The notes beneath the pieces were generated by a model. The model did no database searches. It saw only the letters and a program-made list of their open reading frames with translations, and had not been told where the DNA came from. This document shows positions 20,830-58,270 of a DNA stretch of 64,000 nt, piece after piece (position 1 is the stretch's first letter; each line of letters begins with the position of its first letter). The stretch comes from Escherichia coli. Lineage in GTDB: Bacteria > Pseudomonadota > Gammaproteobacteria > Enterobacterales > Enterobacteriaceae. Where the stretch lies: the NCBI RefSeq assembly GCF_022846255.1, contig NZ_AP025682.1; one strand, 5' to 3'. Both the position numbers and the translations under genes were made by a program.

Positions 20830-22257
20830 CTAGCGCGACTGCTGATTATATTCATCATCGCGTTGATAAGCTTCATCATTCGGCTGCTCCGGAACCGACC
20901 GAAGTCGATACTCTTCATCCTGGCTCACCGCCTGTTCAGCCAAATCCGGATTAATCTCGCGTTTAATTTCTACCCCTAAACCGCGAAACGCTTCTGCCTG
21001 CGCCAGCACATTTCCGCGACCTGAAGAGAGTTTTTTCATTGCCTGGCGATAGTTATCCTGCGCTTTGTCGAGACTTTGACCAATCGCGGACATGTCATCG
21101 ACAAACAAACGCATCTTGTCGTACAGCTTGCTGGCACGATCGGCGATTTGCTGGGCGTTGCGGCTTTGATGCTCATAACGCCACAGGTTGGCGATAGTGC
21201 GCAGCGCCACCAGCAGCGTAGTCGGGCTAACCAGCATGATATTGTTTTTCAACGCTTCGGTGATCAGCTCCGGCTGACGGTCAAGCGCCAGTAAAAAAGC
21301 GGGTTCAACGGGAATAAACATCAGCACGTAATCCAGAGTTCGCAGCCCCGGCAGCTGTTGATAATCTTTGCGTCCCAGCAAACGGATATGGTTACGTACC
21401 GACGCGATATGTTCCTGTAGCGCGCTTTCACGGGAGTAGTCATCTTCGGCGTTGAAATAGCGTTCATAGGCGACCAGCGTCATTTTGGCGTCGATCACCA
21501 CATCTTTTCCCTGCGGCAACCGCACGATGACATCCGGCTGCATCCGCGAGCGGGCGTCATTTTCGATGCTGACCTGGGTTTCATATTCATACCCTTCACG
21601 CAGACCGGAAGCCTCCAGCACCCGCGTCAATACTACCTCGCCCCAGTTGCCCTGGGTTTTATTGTCGCCTTTCAGCGCACGCGTCAGGTTGATCGCTTCC
21701 TGGGCCATCTGGGCGTTGAGTTGCTGGAGGTTGCGGATTTCGTGAGTCAGGGTATGACGTTCTTGGGCTTCTTTACCAAAGCTGTCCTGGACCTGACGGC
21801 GGAAACCATCCAGTTGTTCACGCAACGGCGACAAAAGACTGTTCAGACTCTGGCGATTTTGCTCATCAACCCGACGATTACTGTGTTCAAAAATACGGTT
21901 GGCAAGGTTTTCAAATTGCTCACTGAGGCGCTGTTCGCTGTTGATCATCTGGCGAATTTTATCGTCAGCGTGTTGCTGTGCGGCTTCCATCCGCGTGGTC
22001 ACTTCACGCAGATCGGCCTCCAGCGAGGTGTTAATACTTTGCAGGCTGCGCACTTCGTTATTGAGCAATTCACACTCTGCGCGCCAGTGCTCGCTTTGGG
22101 TAATTTGTTGTTTTGCCGCGCTTAACTCCGCGACCATCTCTTCACGTTCAGCTAATTGCTCGGCTTTTTGCTGCGCATGTTGATAACTGGCAAACAGCCA
22201 GCCAATTGCCACACCCACCAATGCAATAACTGCGTAAACCATGATTGAGAAATCCAC
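20830..22257 (-). CDS. rmuC: DNA recombination protein RmuC
   Basis: 475-aa ORF with N-terminal TM segment and long coiled-coil region. Confidence 0.92.
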   Translation of the reverse strand: MDFSIMVYAVIALVGVAIGWLFASYQHAQQKAEQLAEREEMVAELSAAKQQITQSEHWRAECELLNNEVRSLQSINTSLEADLREVTTRMEAAQQHADDKIRQMINSEQRLSEQFENLANRIFEHSNRRVDEQNRQSLNSLLSPLREQLDGFRRQVQDSFGKEAQERHTLTHEIRNLQQLNAQMAQEAINLTRALKGDNKTQGNWGEVVLTRVLEASGLREGYEYETQVSIENDARSRMQPDVIVRLPQGKDVVIDAKMTLVAYERYFNAEDDYSRESALQEHIASVRNHIRLLGRKDYQQLPGLRTLDYVLMFIPVEPAFLLALDRQPELITEALKNNIMLVSPTTLLVALRTIANLWRYEHQSRNAQQIADRASKLYDKMRLFVDDMSAIGQSLDKAQDNYRQAMKKLSSGRGNVLAQAEAFRGLGVEIKREINPDLAEQAVSQDEEYRLRSVPEQPNDEAYQRDDEYNQQSR

Positions 22258-22377
22258 AACGCCTCCTGACGCAACAACTTACCCGCACAAAATAGAATTG
22301 TGCTGTACAAACGTCCAGTTTGAAAGAAGTTTCCTGCGAGGCGCTACGCAAAACGATCGTTAATTTTCATTATTTTA

Positions 22378-22411
22378 TCCCACAATATGAGATGGAGTTT
22401 ATATTGTGGGA
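22378..22411. promoter_or_regulatory. perfect 11-bp inverted repeat (TCCCACAATAT-N12-ATATTGTGGGA) in the rmuC / IclR divergent region
   Basis: Seen directly in sequence, 62 bp upstream of the IclR-family regulator ATG; candidate operator. Confidence 0.5.
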
Positions 22412-22473
22412 TATATCACCTTTTCCCCACGTCATTATGTGGAACACTTCAGCAATATCATCAGGAGAAACGT

Positions 22474-23241
22474 ATGGCAGAAACCTCTTCAACCACCGCA
22501 GGCGCACAAACGTTATTACGTGGACTGGCGGTTCTTAATGCTGTTTATAACGGCTGCCATGACCTAAAAAGTATCGGCGAGTTCACCGGCACGACCCGGA
22601 GCACAACCCATCGTTTAGTCACCGTTCTGGTGGAACAACGCTACCTGCGCCATGTCCCAACGCAGGGCTACCAACTGGGTGCCAAACTGATCGAATTTGG
22701 TGCCAGAGCACTGGAAAGCACCTCGCTGTACGAAATTGCCCAGCCCGTTTTGCAACGCCTTGCCCGTTACACCCTGGACACCGTGCATCTGGGGATCGTT
22801 GAAGGCGACGAAGTGCTGTATCTGGAGAAGATCAACAGTCAGCGCGGGCTGGAAATGCGCTCACGCCCAGGCCATCGCATGCCACTGGCAATCACCGGCA
22901 TCGGCAAGGCATTGATCCTCAACCGAACAGAAGAAGAGTGGCGCACGCTGTTTAAGACCTGTGGTGATGAAACAAAACTGGGCACATTTATTCAGAACAT
23001 GCGTCGTTATGCCGCCAGTGGTTTTGCTTTTGATCTGGAAGAGAACGAGCCGACTATCCGTTGCGTTGCAGCGCCGGTTTACAACGCCCGGGATGAAATT
23101 GTGGCGGCTATTTCTGTCGCCAGTACCACCACGTATATGTCGCTGGCGCGTCTGGAAGAACTGGCACCTTACGTCAAATCCTGTGCAGAAGAGATATCCG
23201 CTGAACTGGGCTGGGGTAAGCACGTCCGCAAAGATAAATAA
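22474..23241 (+). CDS. IclR-family transcriptional regulator
   Basis: ORF from 22387; start taken at MAETSSTTAGAQTLLRGLAVLNA (RBS AGGAGA). N-terminal wHTH and C-terminal effector-domain pattern of IclR family. Confidence 0.85.
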   Translation: MAETSSTTAGAQTLLRGLAVLNAVYNGCHDLKSIGEFTGTTRSTTHRLVTVLVEQRYLRHVPTQGYQLGAKLIEFGARALESTSLYEIAQPVLQRLARYTLDTVHLGIVEGDEVLYLEKINSQRGLEMRSRPGHRMPLAITGIGKALILNRTEEEWRTLFKTCGDETKLGTFIQNMRRYAASGFAFDLEENEPTIRCVAAPVYNARDEIVAAISVASTTTYMSLARLEELAPYVKSCAEEISAELGWGKHVRKDK

Positions 23242-23264: not shown

Positions 23265-24269
23265 ATGCCGGGAGCACCCTCATTTATTGCCCTGGACTGG
23301 GGAACGTCATCGCTTCGGGCATGGCGTTTTGGCGAATCACCAAATCCACAAGAAAAACGTGAATTCCCCTGGGGGATCATGAAATTACCCTCCCAGGCAG
23401 CAACACGTGAGGACGCTTTCCACGATACGTTTTTACGTGTCTGCGGCGACTGGCTGGCACAAACCCCATGCCCGGTACTGGCTTGCGGCATGCTCGGCAG
23501 TGCGCAAGGGTGGCAATCAGCAGCTTATTTACCTTGCCCGGTCACTCTCGAGGGTCTGGCGAAGCAGTTGACGCCTGTTATCCACCAGCAGCAGACAATG
23601 CTGCATATCATTCCTGGCGTGATTAAAGAAGGTGAAATGCCCGAAGTGATGCGTGGCGAAGAAACACAAATCTTCGGTGCTATCTCGATGGAACCGGCCC
23701 TGCAAAACGCGATCCATCAGGGTATGCCAGTGCTGATAGGCTTACCCGGCACACATGCGAAATGGGCAGTAGTTGAAAACAACACCATTACCGATTTCCG
23801 AACCTTTATGACGGGCGAGTTATTTGATGTTTTATCCCGCCATTCGATTCTCGGTGCCACCATGCATCCTGGAGATGAACCGCACTGGGATGCCTTCACC
23901 CACGGGCTGACAGCAGCACAAGAGCATCATCAGACCGGATTATTATCGACGCTGTTTTCGACCCGTTCGCGCCTGCTGACCAGTAATCTTACGTCGTCCT
24001 CGCAGGGGGATTACCTTTCCGGATTACTGATAGGCCATGAATTATGTGGTCTGGCATCCAGTTTGCTACGTGATTTACCCGCCACAACACCGATCGCCTT
24101 AATCGGTAGCGCAAATCTGAACAGCCGCTATTCACAAGCATTCAGCCACGTTTTTCCCGACAGACAGATACACGCCATTCCTAATGCCACTGAACAGGGA
24201 TTATGGCGAATCGCCCACGCTGCCGGGTTACTGTCCACCAACGCCAGGGAATGTACCCATGCCATTTAA
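23265..24269 (+). CDS. 2-dehydro-3-deoxygalactonokinase-family sugar-acid kinase (DgoK-like)
   Basis: 334-aa ORF; motifs IALDWGTSSLRAW, MRGEETQIFGA, DFRTFMTGELF, LSGLLIGHEL parallel E. coli DgoK as I recall it. Confidence 0.82.
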   Translation: MPGAPSFIALDWGTSSLRAWRFGESPNPQEKREFPWGIMKLPSQAATREDAFHDTFLRVCGDWLAQTPCPVLACGMLGSAQGWQSAAYLPCPVTLEGLAKQLTPVIHQQQTMLHIIPGVIKEGEMPEVMRGEETQIFGAISMEPALQNAIHQGMPVLIGLPGTHAKWAVVENNTITDFRTFMTGELFDVLSRHSILGATMHPGDEPHWDAFTHGLTAAQEHHQTGLLSTLFSTRSRLLTSNLTSSSQGDYLSGLLIGHELCGLASSLLRDLPATTPIALIGSANLNSRYSQAFSHVFPDRQIHAIPNATEQGLWRIAHAAGLLSTNARECTHAI

Positions 24270-24888
24270 TACGCTTTTGCAAAAAACCGGGTTAGTCGCC
24301 ATTTTACGCGGCGTGAAACCGGATGAGATTGTCGCCATCGGTGAAAAACTGTACGCCGCCGGATTCCGCCTGATTGAGATTCCTATGAACTCGCCGGAGG
24401 CGTTGCAAAGTATCAGTATACTGCGCGACGCCCTGCCTAAGGACTGCCTGGTCGGAGCCGGAACTGTGCTTTCGGTAGAGCAGGTGGTTGCGGTTAAAGA
24501 GGCTGGGGGCCAGATTATCGTGATGCCGCATTGCGATACTGCGGTGATCCGTCGCGCCCGTGCGCTGGGTATGTATTGTGCGCCTGGCGTCGCCACGCCC
24601 ACCGAAGCCTTTGCTGCCATTGAACATGGTGCTAATGCCATCAAGCTGTTCCCGGCTGAACAAATTACGCCAGAAGTTACCAAAGCCTGGCGTGCGGTTA
24701 TTCCACAATCCGTTCCGATGTTACCGGTTGGCGGTATCACACCGGAAACCATGGCGCGTTATCTGAGCCACGGCGCAAACGGCTTTGGCCTCGGTTCTGC
24801 GCTATATCGCCCCGGCATGACGCCAGAGCAAGTCTATGAAAATGCAGTACTGTTTATGAACGCATGGAACAATTTAAATAGCAACTAA
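24259..24888 (+). CDS. 2-dehydro-3-deoxy-6-phosphogalactonate / KDPG-type aldolase (DgoA-like)
   Basis: Start taken at MPFNTLLQKTGLVAILRGVKPDE (209 aa); motifs ILRG, GAGTV, GxATPTEAF, PVGGIT as in DgoA/Eda aldolases; start overlaps the kinase stop by 11 nt. Confidence 0.82.
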   Translation: MPFNTLLQKTGLVAILRGVKPDEIVAIGEKLYAAGFRLIEIPMNSPEALQSISILRDALPKDCLVGAGTVLSVEQVVAVKEAGGQIIVMPHCDTAVIRRARALGMYCAPGVATPTEAFAAIEHGANAIKLFPAEQITPEVTKAWRAVIPQSVPMLPVGGITPETMARYLSHGANGFGLGSALYRPGMTPEQVYENAVLFMNAWNNLNSN

Positions 24889-24912: not shown

Positions 24913-25887
24913 ATGATAAAACATCTTACCTTACCGAAAAAAATGGCTGCAATGGTACTTCTTGCAGGCGCTGCCCTCAGCATTGCGCCTGTACAGGCAG
25001 CCTCCTGGCCAACCAAACAGATCGAGTTAGTCGTTCCCTACGCTGCCGGAGGCGGTACGGATCTGGTTGCCCGTGCCTTTGCTGATGCCGCCAAAAACCA
25101 TTTACCCGTCAGCATCGGGGTTATCAATAAACCTGGCGGAGGCGGTGCTATCGGCCTGAGTGAAATCGCCGCTGCCCGCCCTAACGGTTACAAAATTGGT
25201 TTAGGCACGGTTGAACTGACCACCCTTCCCAGCCTCGGAATGGTGCGTTTTAAAACCAGCGACTTTAAACCCATTGCCCGTCTGAATGCGGATCCGGCTG
25301 CTATCACAGTCCGTGCCGATGCGCCGTGGAATAGCTATGAAGAATTTATGGCTTACTCCAAAGCGAATCCCGGAAAAGTACGCATTGGTAACTCAGGCAC
25401 CGGAGCTATCTGGCATCTGGCGGCAGCTGCACTGGAAGACAAAACGGGCACAAAGTTTTCTCATGTCCCGTATGACGGCGCAGCCCCTGCCATTACAGGC
25501 CTGTTAGGCGGGCACATTGAAGCGGTTTCCGTAAGCCCAGGAGAAGTTATCAACCATGTGAATGGCGGCAAGCTGAAGACACTGGTAGTGATGGCGGATG
25601 AGCGAATGAAAACCATGCCTGACGTCCCGACGTTAAAAGAGAAAGGCGTTGATCTCTCCATCGGCACCTGGCGCGGCCTGATTGTGTCGCAAAAAACGCC
25701 GCAGGATGTGGTGGATGTTCTGGCAAAGGCAGCAAAAGAGACGGCTGAAGAGCCTGCATTCCAGGATGCACTGCAAAAGTTGAATCTCAACTATGCATGG
25801 CTTGACGCTGCCAGCTTCCAGACCCAAATCAGCGAACAGGAAAAGTACTTTGACGAGTTGCTGACTCGCCTGGGCCTGAAAAAATAA
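24913..25887 (+). CDS. tripartite tricarboxylate transporter substrate-binding protein (TctC/Bug family), periplasmic
   Basis: 324 aa with signal peptide (MIKHLTLPKKMAAMVLLAGAALSIAPVQA) and typical Bug-family length. Confidence 0.8.
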   Translation: MIKHLTLPKKMAAMVLLAGAALSIAPVQAASWPTKQIELVVPYAAGGGTDLVARAFADAAKNHLPVSIGVINKPGGGGAIGLSEIAAARPNGYKIGLGTVELTTLPSLGMVRFKTSDFKPIARLNADPAAITVRADAPWNSYEEFMAYSKANPGKVRIGNSGTGAIWHLAAAALEDKTGTKFSHVPYDGAAPAITGLLGGHIEAVSVSPGEVINHVNGGKLKTLVVMADERMKTMPDVPTLKEKGVDLSIGTWRGLIVSQKTPQDVVDVLAKAAKETAEEPAFQDALQKLNLNYAWLDAASFQTQISEQEKYFDELLTRLGLKK

Positions 25888-25900
25888 ACCTGAGGTACGG

Positions 25901-26410
25901 TTGATGAACACAAAACAGTCTGTTGCTCAACTCGCCGTACCGCACCGCAAGCGCCTTTCATCAACGATGGTGGTGGCGCTGTTACTTTGTGTGGTTGCTG
26001 GCGCGGTGATGATTAATGCCGCTGATTTTCCAGCAACTGCCATTGAAACGGATCCCGGTGCAAGTGCCTTCCCTACCTTCTATGCCTGTGCCCTGATTGT
26101 GCTCGCTGTCTTGCTGGTGATACGCGATCTTTTGCAGGCAAAACCAGCCTCTTGCGCCAACGCACAGGAAAAACCGGCATTCAGGAAAACAGCAACAGGA
26201 ATTGCGGCAACCGCGTTTTATATTGTGGCGATGAGCTACTGCGGTTATCTCATTACTACTCCTGTTTTCCTCATCGTCATTATGACGTTGATGGGCTACA
26301 GGCGATGGGTACTCACACCGGGTATTGCGCTGCTGTTAACGGCAATCCTCTGGTTGCTGTTTGTCGAAGCGTTACAGGTGCCATTGCCTGTCGGCACATT
26401 TTTCGAATAA
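25901..26410 (+). CDS. tripartite tricarboxylate transporter small membrane subunit (TctB-like)
   Basis: 169-aa four-TM protein between TctC-like and TctA-like genes. Confidence 0.75.
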   Translation: MMNTKQSVAQLAVPHRKRLSSTMVVALLLCVVAGAVMINAADFPATAIETDPGASAFPTFYACALIVLAVLLVIRDLLQAKPASCANAQEKPAFRKTATGIAATAFYIVAMSYCGYLITTPVFLIVIMTLMGYRRWVLTPGIALLLTAILWLLFVEALQVPLPVGTFFE

Positions 26411-26422
26411 CAGGGGCCAGCA

Positions 26423-27913
26423 ATGTTTGAAAGTGAACTTTTAACTCAGGGTTTTTCGACATTACTCAATAATCCTCAGGCGCTGCTGTTTGCCACTTTT
26501 GGGGTGATGCTGGGTATTGTGATTGGCGCTTTGCCTGGTCTGACAGCGACCATGGGTGTGGCGATTTTGCTGCCTTTCACCTACGGCATGGAGCCTGTTT
26601 CTGGATTGTTGATGATTTGCGGCGTCTTTTTTGGTGGCGTCTACGGTGGTTCTATCACCGCAATTTTGCTCAAAATTCCCGGAACGCCTGCCGCCGCAGC
26701 CACCGCTATTGATGGTTATGAGCTGACGAAACAGGGAAAAGCAGGGCTGGCATTGAGTGCCGCCACGTTCTCTTCCTTTAGTGGCGGAACGCTCAGCATT
26801 ATCGTGCTGATGTTTCTCTCTCCGGTACTTGCCAGTTGGGCGCTGAAATTTAGTGCCTCGGAGTCCTTCGCCCTGGCAACCTTCGGACTGAGCATTATTG
26901 CCAGTATTTCCGGTGAGTCGCTGATTAAGGGGCTGATTGCCGGGGTTGGCGGATTGCTGATCGCAACGATAGGCCTTGATCCAATGGGCGGTTTTCCACG
27001 GTTTACAGGTGGATTTGTGGAGCTGATGAATGTGCCATTTATCCCGGTGATGATTGGTTTATTTGCTGCTTCAGAAGCATTCCGCTCTATGGAGCAAAAC
27101 CAGCAAATTCGTCGGGGCGCGAAGGTGGCTATCGGCAGTCTGTTACTGCCCTGGCAAACACTACGCCGCATCGCATTAACCATTTTGCGCTCATCAGGAT
27201 TAGGGGTTTTTATCGGCATGATCCCCGGTGCGGGGGCGGATATTGCAGCTTTTGTTGCCTATAACGAAACTCGTCGTTTCAGTAAGACACCAGAAAACTT
27301 TGGTAAGGGTGAAATTAAAGCTGTGGCCTCCTGTGAGGCAGGCGCGAATGGCTGCACCGGTGGCGCATTGTTACCTATGCTGACGCTGGGGATCCCTGGC
27401 GATGCGGTAACCGCCATCATGCTGGGCGCGTTAACGTTACAGGGAATGCAACCAGGCCCGCTGATGTTTACCGACCACGGCGATATGGTTTATACACTGT
27501 TTGTCGGCATGATCTTTTGTTACTTCATGCTGCTAGTTCTTGGACTGCTCTCTTTGAAAGTCATCGGTAACGTGGTGAAGATCCCCGGCAATATTCTCAC
27601 ACCGATGATCCTCGCACTTTGTGTGGTCGGGACTTATGCGTTGAACAATAGCCTTTTTGATGTTGGCATTATGCTGATTGCAGGCGTGGTGGGCTATTTC
27701 ATGCAGAAAGGAGGATATCCGGCATCACCCGTAGTGCTGGCATTGATTATGGGGCCAATGGCGGAAAGTAATTTTCGCCGTGCGCTGTCGCTTTCTGGTG
27801 GGTCACTCGACTTTCTGTATACCCGACCGATCACTCTGGCATTGCTAACTCTGGCAGCCTTTACGCTACTGACGCCAATAATCCGCAAAATAATGCGTTT
27901 ACGGCGTCAGTAA
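26423..27913 (+). CDS. tripartite tricarboxylate transporter large permease (TctA-like)
   Basis: 496-aa polytopic membrane protein with Gly-rich TctA-type segments. Confidence 0.82.
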   Translation: MFESELLTQGFSTLLNNPQALLFATFGVMLGIVIGALPGLTATMGVAILLPFTYGMEPVSGLLMICGVFFGGVYGGSITAILLKIPGTPAAAATAIDGYELTKQGKAGLALSAATFSSFSGGTLSIIVLMFLSPVLASWALKFSASESFALATFGLSIIASISGESLIKGLIAGVGGLLIATIGLDPMGGFPRFTGGFVELMNVPFIPVMIGLFAASEAFRSMEQNQQIRRGAKVAIGSLLLPWQTLRRIALTILRSSGLGVFIGMIPGAGADIAAFVAYNETRRFSKTPENFGKGEIKAVASCEAGANGCTGGALLPMLTLGIPGDAVTAIMLGALTLQGMQPGPLMFTDHGDMVYTLFVGMIFCYFMLLVLGLLSLKVIGNVVKIPGNILTPMILALCVVGTYALNNSLFDVGIMLIAGVVGYFMQKGGYPASPVVLALIMGPMAESNFRRALSLSGGSLDFLYTRPITLALLTLAAFTLLTPIIRKIMRLRRQ

Positions 27914-27920
27914 CTGATAT

Positions 27921-27950
27921 CGCTCCCCGAAGTTGGGGAGCGTTTTTTTA
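27921..27950 (+). terminator. rho-independent terminator after the tctA-like gene (overlaps the udp stop on the opposite strand)
   Basis: CGCTCCCC-GAAGTT-GGGGAGCG stem-loop followed by TTTTTTT. Confidence 0.75.
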
Positions 27951-28712
27951 TTTCAGCAGACGACGCGCCGCTTCCACCACGATTTTCACCGCATGGCTTT
28001 CGGTTTGTTTCATCGTCTCAGCATTCGGGATCTCTTGCTGGGTGCGGTTAACGATAACCCCCGCTACCATACCGGCACGCAGGCCCTGACTTGCACACAT
28101 GGTCAGCAGGGTTGCAGATTCCATTTCATAGTTCATTACGCCCATCGCCTGCCACTCTTCCATAGAACCTTTAAAGTGACGAACTACGCGACCAGAGTAA
28201 GTATCGTAACGTTCCTGACCAGGGTAGAAGGTATCAGAAGAAGCTGTCACGCCAACGTGAGTCGTCGCGCCAATGGATTTCGCAGCTTCAACCAGCGCAG
28301 TCGTACATTCGAAATCAGCGACAGCCGGGAATTCCAGCGGTGCGAAGTGCAGGCTCGCACCATCCAGACGAACAGACGCCGTGGTAACCAGGACATCGCC
28401 AACATTAATATGCGGCTGAATAGCGCCCGTTGTGCCGATACGCAGGAAGGTGCGAATGCCCAGCTGTGCCAGCTCTTCAACAGCAATAGAGGTAGACGGG
28501 CCGCCGATACCGGTAGAGCAGACGATAACAGGTTTACCATCCAGCTCTGCACGCCAGGTGGTGAATTCGCGATGAGATGCCAGCTTAACCGGCTTATCCA
28601 TCAGCGCGGCGATCTTTTCCACACGATCCGGGTCGCCAGGGACGATGGCAAGCGTAGCCCCTTGTAAATCGTTTTTAGTGAGGCCGAGATGAAAAACATC
28701 AGACTTGGACAT
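27948..28712 (-). CDS. udp: uridine phosphorylase
   Basis: Product from [33 protein letters not shown]; the ORF track starts 2 codons upstream. Confidence 0.95.
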
Positions 28713-28789
28713 ATACAACTCCTCTGTGAATCGGTTTAGTCAGAAGAAGCAAAAAGACACTTTACCGAAGGGTTTAACATTTTTTCGTG

Positions 28790-28855
28790 ATACTCATCAC
28801 CATGACGAAAATGCGTTGCATAAATTTACCCGCCAAAAGTGATGCAAATCACATA
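28790..28855 (-). promoter_or_regulatory. udp promoter region with a CRP-type site (TGTGATTTGCATCACT, reverse strand at 28839-28854) and a second weaker upstream half-site pair
   Basis: TGTGA-N6-TCACT match; udp is a known CRP/CytR-regulated gene. Exact operator boundaries not verified. Confidence 0.55.
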
Positions 28856-46096: not shown

Positions 46097-46132
46097 TGTT
46101 ATTCCCCCTGATAGCGTATCAGGGGGAAGTGC

Positions 46133-53134: not shown

Positions 53135-53503
53135 GACCGGGACTCCCAATGCTTAAAATATCGGACAGTTCGGTGGGCACACAGAAACAAATTGGGTTTC
53201 AGACCATTAAACAGCCTGACTCAGCGCGACGGGAAAAATTGAGGTCGCTGACAACCGCTAAGGCTATCAGCAAAAAGGGATAGCCTTAGGAGTTGATCCT
53301 GGATGACAGGATAGTGAGCCAGTATCTACTGGGTGTGTCCAAGGCGAATGTCCTCTTAGAGTGATCGTGCGCGCATGTTACGCCAGCAAAATTTTGCCGT
53401 CAACACGCAACAGAACACCACAGAACAATAGTTGAACTTCGCGCTTTTTGGTACTCGTCAAGGTCGCTAACAGGATAAAAAAATCCCACATCCAGGACCT
53501 ATA

Positions 53504-55260: not shown

Positions 55261-55300
55261 ATGCCGGATGCGGTGTGGCGCACCGCATCCGGCAACGGAA
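55261..55300. repeat. REP-type palindrome
   Basis: GCCGGATGCGGTG-TGGCG-CACCGCATCCGGC, a perfect 13-bp inverted repeat with REP consensus. Confidence 0.75.
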
Positions 55301-57534: not shown

Positions 57535-57553
57535 ATATATACAGATTTGCTGA

Positions 57554-58270
57554 TTATATCAGCGAGGTCAGAGATGCCAACCGGGAAATTTCCAGATGCG
57601 GGAGTAAACGGCTGTCCCAGGTTTGCATCAGATCGCCATTTTCCGGTCTGATCCAACAGGCCTGCATTCCGCTTCGAATTGCCCCACCCACGTCAGTGGT
57701 GAGATCGTCCCCAACATGTAAGATCTTGCCGATCGGCACGTTGAGTTTTTCCGCCGCCAGGAAGTACATATCGCTGAACGGTTTTGAGCGCCCGTGCGGG
57801 CCAGCACGCAGCACAAACTCAAAATAATCCCCCAAACCAAACAGCTCCGGCTGGGCGTTACCGTTGGTGATCGCCACCAGCGGCCATTTCTTCGCCAGCT
57901 GTTTTAAGGTGTCGTGCGTTTGCTGCGGAACGTCGATCCGGCTACGCCATTTGGCAAAGTTGATCATTGCCGCGTGTGCGCCTGCACTGGCTTCTTCTGC
58001 GCTCAGCCCGGCGTCGAGCATCGCTTGTTCTATTGAGCGAAAACGCCAGCGCGTCACATCATGATAAATCTCGGGTTCCGCTTCCCGTACCGCCTGACGC
58101 AGACGTTGCAGATCTTCATTCTGGAAGCTGCGCAGCGCCGGATGGTAATTTTGCACAAAGGTAAGCGCCTCCTGCTCAGTGCGCAAAATCACCGGACGGT
58201 TATCGTAAAGGGTATCATCCAGGTCAAAGGTGAGCGCCGAGATGCGCCCCAAAGGCCGGTAAAAACGCAT
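57554..58270 (-). CDS. yigB: HAD-family phosphatase YigB
   Basis: 238-aa ORF with HAD motif I ([13 protein letters not shown]). Confidence 0.9.

Follow-up and report, generated by a model that had tools for sequence, protein, structure and literature searches.

IclR-type tandem operators and galactonate regulators

Group-1 regulators of the IclR family recognize the motif GKTYCRYW3-4RYGRAMC. Tandem IclR sites that lie 18-22 nt apart have been described for 94 orthologous groups, and this arrangement was ascribed to tetramers in which the dimers lie on the same side of the DNA (PMC8222616). The element described here resembles the group-1 tandem operators of that study in its 17-bp pseudo-palindromic box, in its spacing within 18-22 nt, and in its location upstream of the regulator's own operon. 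It differs at the peripheral positions, which read ATC...GAT here and TGT-11-ACA, GTT-11-AAC, WTT-11-AAW, or NGT-12-ACN in the published subgroups (PMC8222616). Also unlike the published group-1 operators, the Escherichia coli element combines degenerate inner half-sites with perfect outer ones. In the accessible part of the supplement to PMC8222616, sites for the orthologous group of our regulator were not found, and the similar TCYCA-N5-TGRGA sites listed there all belong to different IclR groups, those of Corynebacterium, Rhodococcus, and Nocardia. DgoK (COG3734) occurs in one regulog of the same part of that supplement.

A tetrameric IclR-family repressor is known from the TtgV-ttgGHI system (PDB 2xro; Lu et al. 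2010, as cited in PMC8222616). The TtgV operator of ~40 bp, which is read cooperatively by a dimer of dimers, provides a working model for the four half-sites reported below. However, TtgV is only distant kin of the regulator considered here (E 7e-11), and it differs in the sequence of its operator, in the class of its effectors (aromatics), and in the function under its control (an efflux pump).

KdgR, a member of the same family that governs the catabolism of pectin and keto-deoxy sugar acids in enterobacteria, is a repressor of keto-deoxy sugar-acid kinase and aldolase genes that is released by a keto-deoxy acid. Its box is AATRAAAYRNYRTTTYATT-like and unrelated to TCCCA-N5-TGGGA. KdgR has a wide regulon, whereas our regulator appears to be local. 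KdgR is the second-best named profile match to this regulator (E 1.7e-37).

In E. coli, the canonical D-galactonate operon dgoRKADT is repressed by DgoR, a protein of the GntR/FadR family (PMC12288454). DgoR is likewise encoded by the first gene of its operon and controls paralogous dgoK and dgoA functions. However, that system differs in regulator family, in operator, and in transporter (DgoT, of the MFS type), and it includes a dehydratase, DgoD, that is absent from the gene cluster studied here. A parallel in gene content comes from Salinivirga fredricksonii, in which an IclR-type regulator ("GalR"), dgoK, and a TTT transporter are found together and both uptake of D-galactonate and its role as effector have been predicted (Leyn et al. 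2017, PMC5507952). The gene combination is the same as in our cluster, but the host is an alphaproteobacterium. Searches of the available literature returned no publication specific to the E. coli gene cluster or to an IclR-type dgo regulator. Nor did we find an earlier description of the palindrome discussed below as a control site of this cluster, although such an operator would be of an ordinary kind.

A putative sugar-acid island between rmuC and udp

The window analyzed in this study is a stretch of 64,000 nucleotides from an E. coli of the ABU 83972 type, with 100% identity over 2.3 kb to ABU 83972 and to other human isolates. It carries a 5.6-kb block of six genes, iclR-dgoK-dgoA-tctCBA, inserted between rmuC (20830-22257, minus strand) and udp (27948-28718, minus strand). 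Because K-12-type homology stops at 22353 and the gap between rmuC and udp in K-12 is only 140 bp, the six-gene block is regarded as an island. Its left junction falls between 22353 and 22354, which is 22 bp before the inverted repeat that is the subject of this report. Of 5426 complete E. coli genomes, 1456 carry this B2-associated island; ABU 83972 and examples of ST131 (O25:H4) are among them.

The first gene of the operon (22474-23241, plus strand) encodes an IclR-family regulator of 255 amino acids (RefSeq WP_001305366.1) that carries the domains HTH_IclR (PF09339) and IclR_C (PF01614). Its ATG at 22474 follows an AGGAG at 22463-22467, and this start agrees with the RefSeq annotation and with the N-termini of homologs. 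The list of open reading frames also offers an in-frame ATG at 22387, inside the repeat. This start was rejected as a non-coding artefact, because the extension from there to 22473 is frameshifted in Escherichia whittamii and is not conserved. The protein is only distantly related to solved structures, and it scores below the cut-off of every named NCBIfam equivalog (for example, 142 bits against 350 for BhcR, and 129 bits against 275 for KdgR). The latter score led us to reject the possibility that the repeat is a site of the KdgR regulon.

Downstream, on the same strand, lies a gene for a 2-dehydro-3-deoxygalactonokinase of the DgoK family (23265-24269; PF05035, E 3.5e-89). The start of the next gene, which encodes a 2-dehydro-3-deoxy-6-phosphogalactonate aldolase of the DgoA type (24259-24888 in RefSeq coordinates; NF006600, 321 bits), overlaps the end of dgoK. 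The genes tctC, tctB, and tctA (24913-27913, plus strand; PF03401, PF07331, and PF01970) follow and encode a transporter of the tripartite tricarboxylate type (TTT). The operon ends at a strong intrinsic terminator, composed of the hairpin CGCTCCCCGAAGTTGGGGAGCG and a T-run (27921-27942, plus strand), just before the stop codon of udp. This terminator stands in place of a different hairpin that is found after udp in K-12. Upstream of udp, two CRP-like matches, CGTGATACTCATCACC and AGTGATGCAAATCACA, are located within 28786-28853; the udp promoter is controlled by CRP and CytR.

The island thus encodes the kinase and the aldolase of the lower D-galactonate (De Ley-Doudoroff) pathway, together with a TTT transporter. 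Because the island genes include no dehydratase, 2-keto-3-deoxy-galactonate or one of its close analogues may be what the transporter takes up. If DgoD from the core genome is used, D-galactonate itself may be the transported compound. TTT-type transporters have been little studied in E. coli, and the operator, the regulator, and the likely CRP input described below offer handles toward the inducer and hence toward the substrate.

A perfect inverted repeat upstream of the regulator gene

The original prediction, made from the window alone, noted an 11-bp palindrome, TCCCACAATAT-N12-ATATTGTGGGA, at 22378-22411. The sequence and coordinates match exactly, and the distance of 62 bp that was given between the palindrome and the regulator start was confirmed as 62 nt to the ATG at 22474. 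The perfect complementarity is in fact longer than was claimed. It comprises 13 nt in each arm, with TATCCCACAATAT at 22376-22388 on the left and ATATTGTGGGATA at 22401-22413 on the right, separated by a spacer of 12 nt.

Perfect inverted repeats whose arms reach 13 nt or more, across a spacer no longer than 20 nt, are expected 0.015 times per dinucleotide-shuffled window (200 shuffles), and thus this repeat is not a chance feature. For arms of at least 11 nt, four repeats were observed, compared with 0.285 expected per window from dinucleotide shuffles. A window-wide search with the 13-mer arm that allowed up to three mismatches gave 14 matches versus 12.95 expected, among which only the two arms stand out. 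Matrix scans of the 64-kb window likewise revealed no second convincing or comparable site. A palindrome at 57548-57564, TGCTGATTATATCAGCG, gave a weak match to the first box matrix (see below), but it is unlike the TCCCA/TGGGA half-sites and was set aside as unrelated.

The exact 42-bp stretch occurs in 847 complete E. coli genomes, and the perfect form of the repeat is not universal among island-bearing strains. Strains of the ST131 type carry C22383T, which gives TCCCATAATAT, and a change in the spacer, without a compensating change in the opposite arm. In these and in some commensal strains, C22383T is found with or without G22395A or T22414C. The variant TCCCATAATAT is nearer to the cross-species consensus than is the sequence of the window. 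The perfection of the E. coli palindrome is therefore lineage-specific and polymorphic within the species.

Co-inheritance of the element with the regulator

Homologs of the regulator with 53-97% identity were taken, together with their flanking DNA, from the genomes of 80 species. The neighbourhood iclR-dgoK-dgoA is kept in all 80 of these loci. The genes tctCBA are added in enterobacteria (Escherichia spp., Buttiauxella, Phytobacter, Klebsiella spallanzanii, and Brenneria) and are absent in Burkholderiaceae; in the single Burkholderiaceae locus that was checked, from Burkholderia savannae, a gene for a periplasmic sugar-binding protein lies downstream of dgoA.

A two-part element of the form (T)TCCCA-WTAT-N-TGA...TCA-N-ATATTGG is found upstream of the regulator gene in 76 of the 78 loci with enough upstream DNA, which include enterobacteria and Burkholderiaceae. 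An alignment of 71 sites yields the consensus ATCCCATTATnTGAAC-N7-TCACATATTGGAGAT, with eight invariant and eight nearly invariant columns. The bases T22378, C22379, C22381, A22382, A22403, and G22408 of the window are invariant across these orthologous sites, and G22389 and T22399 are among the invariant or nearly invariant columns. On the side of the protein, most aligned homologs have the recognition helix RSTTHRL in common, and S43, T44, H46, R47, and L48 are invariant. The motif defines a regulog common to the E. coli island and the iclR-dgoK-dgoA clusters of Burkholderiaceae, and it provides a concrete putative control site for the uncharacterised regulator of an island that is present in about one quarter of complete E. 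coli genomes.

A matrix was needed to capture the motif, since a plain search for CCC-N7-GGG missed most Burkholderia sites. The first matrix was refined on its own top matches and is circular, and a leave-clade-out test frees only the E. coli site from this circularity. When a matrix was built exclusively from 64 betaproteobacterial left boxes, the window positions 22377 (plus strand) and 22396 (minus strand) ranked first and second among the ~128,000 positions on both strands of the 64-kb window. With this same matrix, the best bipartite score in the window was obtained at a centre-to-centre distance of 19 bp.

Conservation is also evident at short range. Among four Escherichia lineages, 26 of 120 island-side intergenic positions vary, compared with only one of 22 positions in the arms (one-sided Fisher p = 0.022); in the spacer of the repeat, 3 of 12 positions vary. 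The repeat is the best-conserved block of the intergenic region. Together with the location in the island, the co-inheritance with the regulator, and the ranking by the betaproteobacteria-only matrix, this conservation lends sequence-based support to the earlier proposal that the palindrome is an operator of the adjacent IclR-family regulator and a control site for the kinase, aldolase, and TTT genes.

A paralogous module occurs in other E. coli, in Citrobacter amalonaticus, and in Lelliottia (loci L083 1-8765, L009, L010, and L084). In this module, an Fe-ADH gene and a DgoK-family gene are divergent from iclR1-dgoK-aldolase-tctCBA-iclR2. The element is located upstream of iclR1, whose product is 53% identical and carries the same recognition helix, RSTTHRL. 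In the Citrobacter and Lelliottia loci (L009 and L010), the regulator that was matched is a second, downstream iclR copy, and the region upstream of this copy lacks the motif. Another recurrent sequence, the identical 17-mer TGCCGATATTGTCAAAA, is found in most Burkholderiaceae loci ~4.5-4.7 kb downstream of the regulator start; it probably belongs to a conserved sugar-transport gene and is not an operator.

Two tandem boxes

Comparison of the orthologs shows that the unit of the element is a pseudo-palindrome of 15-17 bp, TCCCA-N5-TG(G/A)GA, that is followed by an inverted copy 19-20 bp away (centre to centre). The distance is 19 bp in Escherichia and Buttiauxella, and 20 bp in Phytobacter, Brenneria, Achromobacter, and Burkholderiaceae. 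Some orthologs have cleaner palindromes than does E. coli, such as TCCCATATATAGGGA in Buttiauxella and Klebsiella, or TCCCACATATTGGGA in Phytobacter.

In the window, box 1 is the 17-mer ATCCCACAATATGAGAT at 22377-22393 (plus strand), a pseudo-palindrome TCCCA-N5-TGAGA with its centre at 22385. Box 2 is the 17-mer ATCCCACAATATAAACT, as read on the minus strand, at 22396-22412, with its centre at 22404 and a degenerate inner half. The left and right arms of the perfect repeat correspond to the outer halves of box 1 and box 2, respectively. Because the outer half-sites (TCCCACA/TGTGGGA) are strong and identical and the inner half-sites are weak, the E. coli element has the appearance of an 11-13-bp palindrome with a 12-bp gap.

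The original prediction held that the length and symmetry of the palindrome fit the operator of a dimeric wHTH protein. This part of the proposal needs revision. An element that measures 34-38 bp and includes a 12-bp gap exceeds the length of a site for one IclR dimer, and it resolves instead into the two tandem 17-bp boxes; what was taken for a dimeric operator is probably better read as two dimer sites for one tetramer. By our own comparison, box 1 agrees with the group-1 consensus GKTYCRYW3RYGRAMC at 13 of 17 positions, and the departures are confined to the peripheral positions 1, 3, 15, and 17. Four features that mark tandem-box operators of the IclR family are found at this locus, namely an adjoining cognate regulator, a box of ~17 bp, a spacing within 18-22 bp, and a phylogenetic footprint.

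Promoter context and a CRP-like site

Each of the 64 betaproteobacterial loci has TTGGAG, TTGAAT, or TTGGTG within its right box, with TACAAT, TAAAAT, or TAGAAT located 17-18 nt further on. Thus, the right box overlaps the -35 element of a good promoter in Burkholderiaceae. This is a classic repressor position and therefore points to repression. The geometry of the Burkholderia promoter was also applied to E. coli and was rejected there, because TTGTGG plus 17 nt falls on CCACGT, which is not a -10 element. The enteric promoter is therefore presumed to be organised differently. A strict sigma-70 scan of 22200-22520 gave no plus-strand promoter, and thus we infer the position of the operator relative to the E. 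coli promoter. On the minus strand, the results of the same scan were one match and one weak hairpin, of terminator-like form, in the core region.

The original prediction overlooked an adjacent CRP-like site. This site, TGTGG-GATATA-TCACC at 22405-22420, overlaps box 2 and matches TGTGA-N6-TCACA at 8 of 10 core positions; by our own count, the 22-mer at 22402-22423 matches the consensus at 15 of 22 positions. Across Escherichia, Buttiauxella, Phytobacter, and Klebsiella, the half-sites stay constant and the N6 differs, as illustrated by TGTGG-GAATCA-TCACC in E. whittamii, TGTGC-ATTATC-TCACC in Buttiauxella, TGTGC-GCAACG-TCACC in Phytobacter, and TGTGC-AGTAAA-TCACC in Klebsiella. The site is also conserved in the paralogous module (TGTGA-GCGAAT-TCATA). 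Its distance to the ATG is fixed at 52-54 nt in the enteric loci. Over the window as a whole, the CRP-like pattern is no more frequent than expected by chance, with 14 occurrences observed versus 26.6 expected.

The CRP-like core is followed, at a distance of 22-28 nt, by hexamers that resemble a -10 element: AACACT in E. coli, CAGAAT in Klebsiella, and TAAAAT in Brenneria. The E. coli hexamer at 22443-22448 (plus strand) is a candidate weak -10 element. If used, it would imply a transcription start near 22455 and a position near -42 for the CRP-like site, which would fit a class II arrangement. The boxes are predicted to lie upstream of the core promoter, at approximately -50 and -70 in Escherichia and at approximately -60 and -80 in other enteric genera. 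The operator of Escherichia extends over the upstream half of the CRP-like site, whereas a gap of ~9 bp separates operator and CRP-like site in the other enteric genera; this offset corresponds to about one helical turn. Between the CRP-like site and the candidate -10 element lies a small inverted repeat, CCAC-N8-GTGG (22427-22442), that is not conserved in E. whittamii or in Escherichia sp. E1V33.

Proposed regulation and alternative explanations

We propose, with a probability of roughly 0.78, that the IclR-family regulator encoded on the island uses the repeat as its operator, in the form of two tandem 17-bp inverted boxes, and controls its own operon from there. A tetramer of the regulator (a dimer of dimers) would occupy both boxes on one face of the DNA and, while bound, would silence the autoregulated operon iclR-dgoK-dgoA-tctCBA. 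Release of the regulator would be brought about by a keto-deoxy sugar acid or by D-galactonate. In Escherichia, where box 2 overlaps the upstream half of the CRP-like site, this site probably drives a weak promoter of the class II type, and repression would be exerted largely by exclusion of CRP or RNA polymerase. Such a mechanism is conventional for the IclR family, with a typical tandem-box operator on an uncharacterised regulator.

A more elaborate version of this proposal can be offered only tentatively, and we consider it rather doubtful. It holds that the island gives B2-type E. coli a self-contained route for a keto-deoxy sugar acid, most simply 2-keto-3-deoxy-galactonate imported as such by the TTT transporter. 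The route would be switched by anti-activation, in which CRP and a tetrameric IclR-type repressor compete for overlapping DNA. Escherichia would have acquired this overlap by a deletion of ~9 bp, or one helical turn, that moved the operator onto the CRP site. Should the substrate come from the host or its diet, the island could help to determine the niche of B2 strains that live outside the intestine or reside in the gut.

The same protein might bind the same site with the opposite outcome, as an activator or a CRP co-activator that recruits RNA polymerase when the effector is present. MhpR, PobR, and PcaU are activators within the IclR family. With box centres predicted near -70 and -51 (Escherichia) or near -80 and -60 (Buttiauxella, Phytobacter, and Klebsiella), the protein would bind upstream of a promoter in which no -35 element can be recognised, as would suit an activator, and the offset of ~9 bp between lineages would keep the protein on the same DNA face. 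However, activation is unlikely in view of the betaproteobacterial loci, where the right box overlaps the -35 element of a near-consensus promoter in 64 of 64 cases. Moreover, the closest named relatives of the regulator by profile are the repressors KdgR, IclR, and AllR, along with BhcR, and the overlap of box 2 with the CRP-like core in Escherichia favours competition over cooperation. We prefer repression by exclusion of CRP or RNA polymerase.

The operator interpretation must also be weighed against a role of the repeat as a hairpin or cruciform, that is, as an RNA stem-loop, attenuator, or terminator rather than as a protein-binding site. The predicted RNA fold has a free energy of -20.3 kcal/mol (z -5.3), and no shuffled sequence folds as well. 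Nevertheless, such a role is very improbable. The stem is AT-rich, it has no T-run, and it was not flagged by a terminator scan, and the element sits between divergent genes. In Burkholderiaceae, the element lies upstream of the -35 element and overlaps it, and thus would not be transcribed. Across the 71 orthologous sites, 67.9% of cells pair, and four of the 13 pairs (5/41, 7/39, 11/35, and 15/31) are mostly unpaired. In addition, one E. coli lineage has T in place of A at 22385, and its opposite arm shows no compensating change. Because base identity at symmetric positions is conserved, and pairing is not, the element bears the signature of a protein-binding site, consistent with an operator.

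The palindrome resides in a 216-bp intergenic region that the regulator gene shares with the divergent rmuC, 119 bp upstream of the rmuC start codon, and could regulate rmuC rather than the sugar-acid module. This explanation is scarcely tenable. K-12-type E. coli match the sequence upstream of rmuC only as far as 22353 and have no palindrome, and the arm sequence, even with two mismatches allowed, has no match in the rmuC-udp spacer of K-12. Because K-12 is without both the island and the repeat, the repeat is not part of the core rmuC promoter. The original prediction itself held that conservation of the palindrome at rmuC promoters in genomes without the module would assign it to rmuC; this pattern was looked for, and the result was negative. 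The element instead accompanies iclR in loci that have no neighbouring rmuC, which include those of Phytobacter, Brenneria, Achromobacter, and all Burkholderiaceae; in Achromobacter, it is found in the divergent spacer between dgoK and iclR. A LexA-box-like sequence, CTGTACAAACGTCCAG (CTG-N10-CAG), is located in the core region at 22303-22318; the CTG-N10-CAG motif is absent from the palindrome. The gene rmuC (yigN) is a listed SOS gene (PMC6590174). The LexA-box-like sequence is common to the K-12, Buttiauxella, and Klebsiella loci.

Finally, the palindrome might have arisen by chance, or might have been left behind by the insertion, for example as a terminal inverted repeat or an attachment site, and play no part in regulation. 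Although it is located only 22 bp from the island junction, this is hardly credible, given the rarity of such repeats in shuffled windows and the conserved position of the element with respect to the regulator gene, both outside islands and in other bacterial classes. Three further perfect inverted repeats in the window, each with arms of 11 nt or more, are located at 46102-46128, 53258-53289, and 55262-55294. The last of these, TGCCGGATGCGGTG/CACCGCATCCGGCA, resembles a REP-type element.
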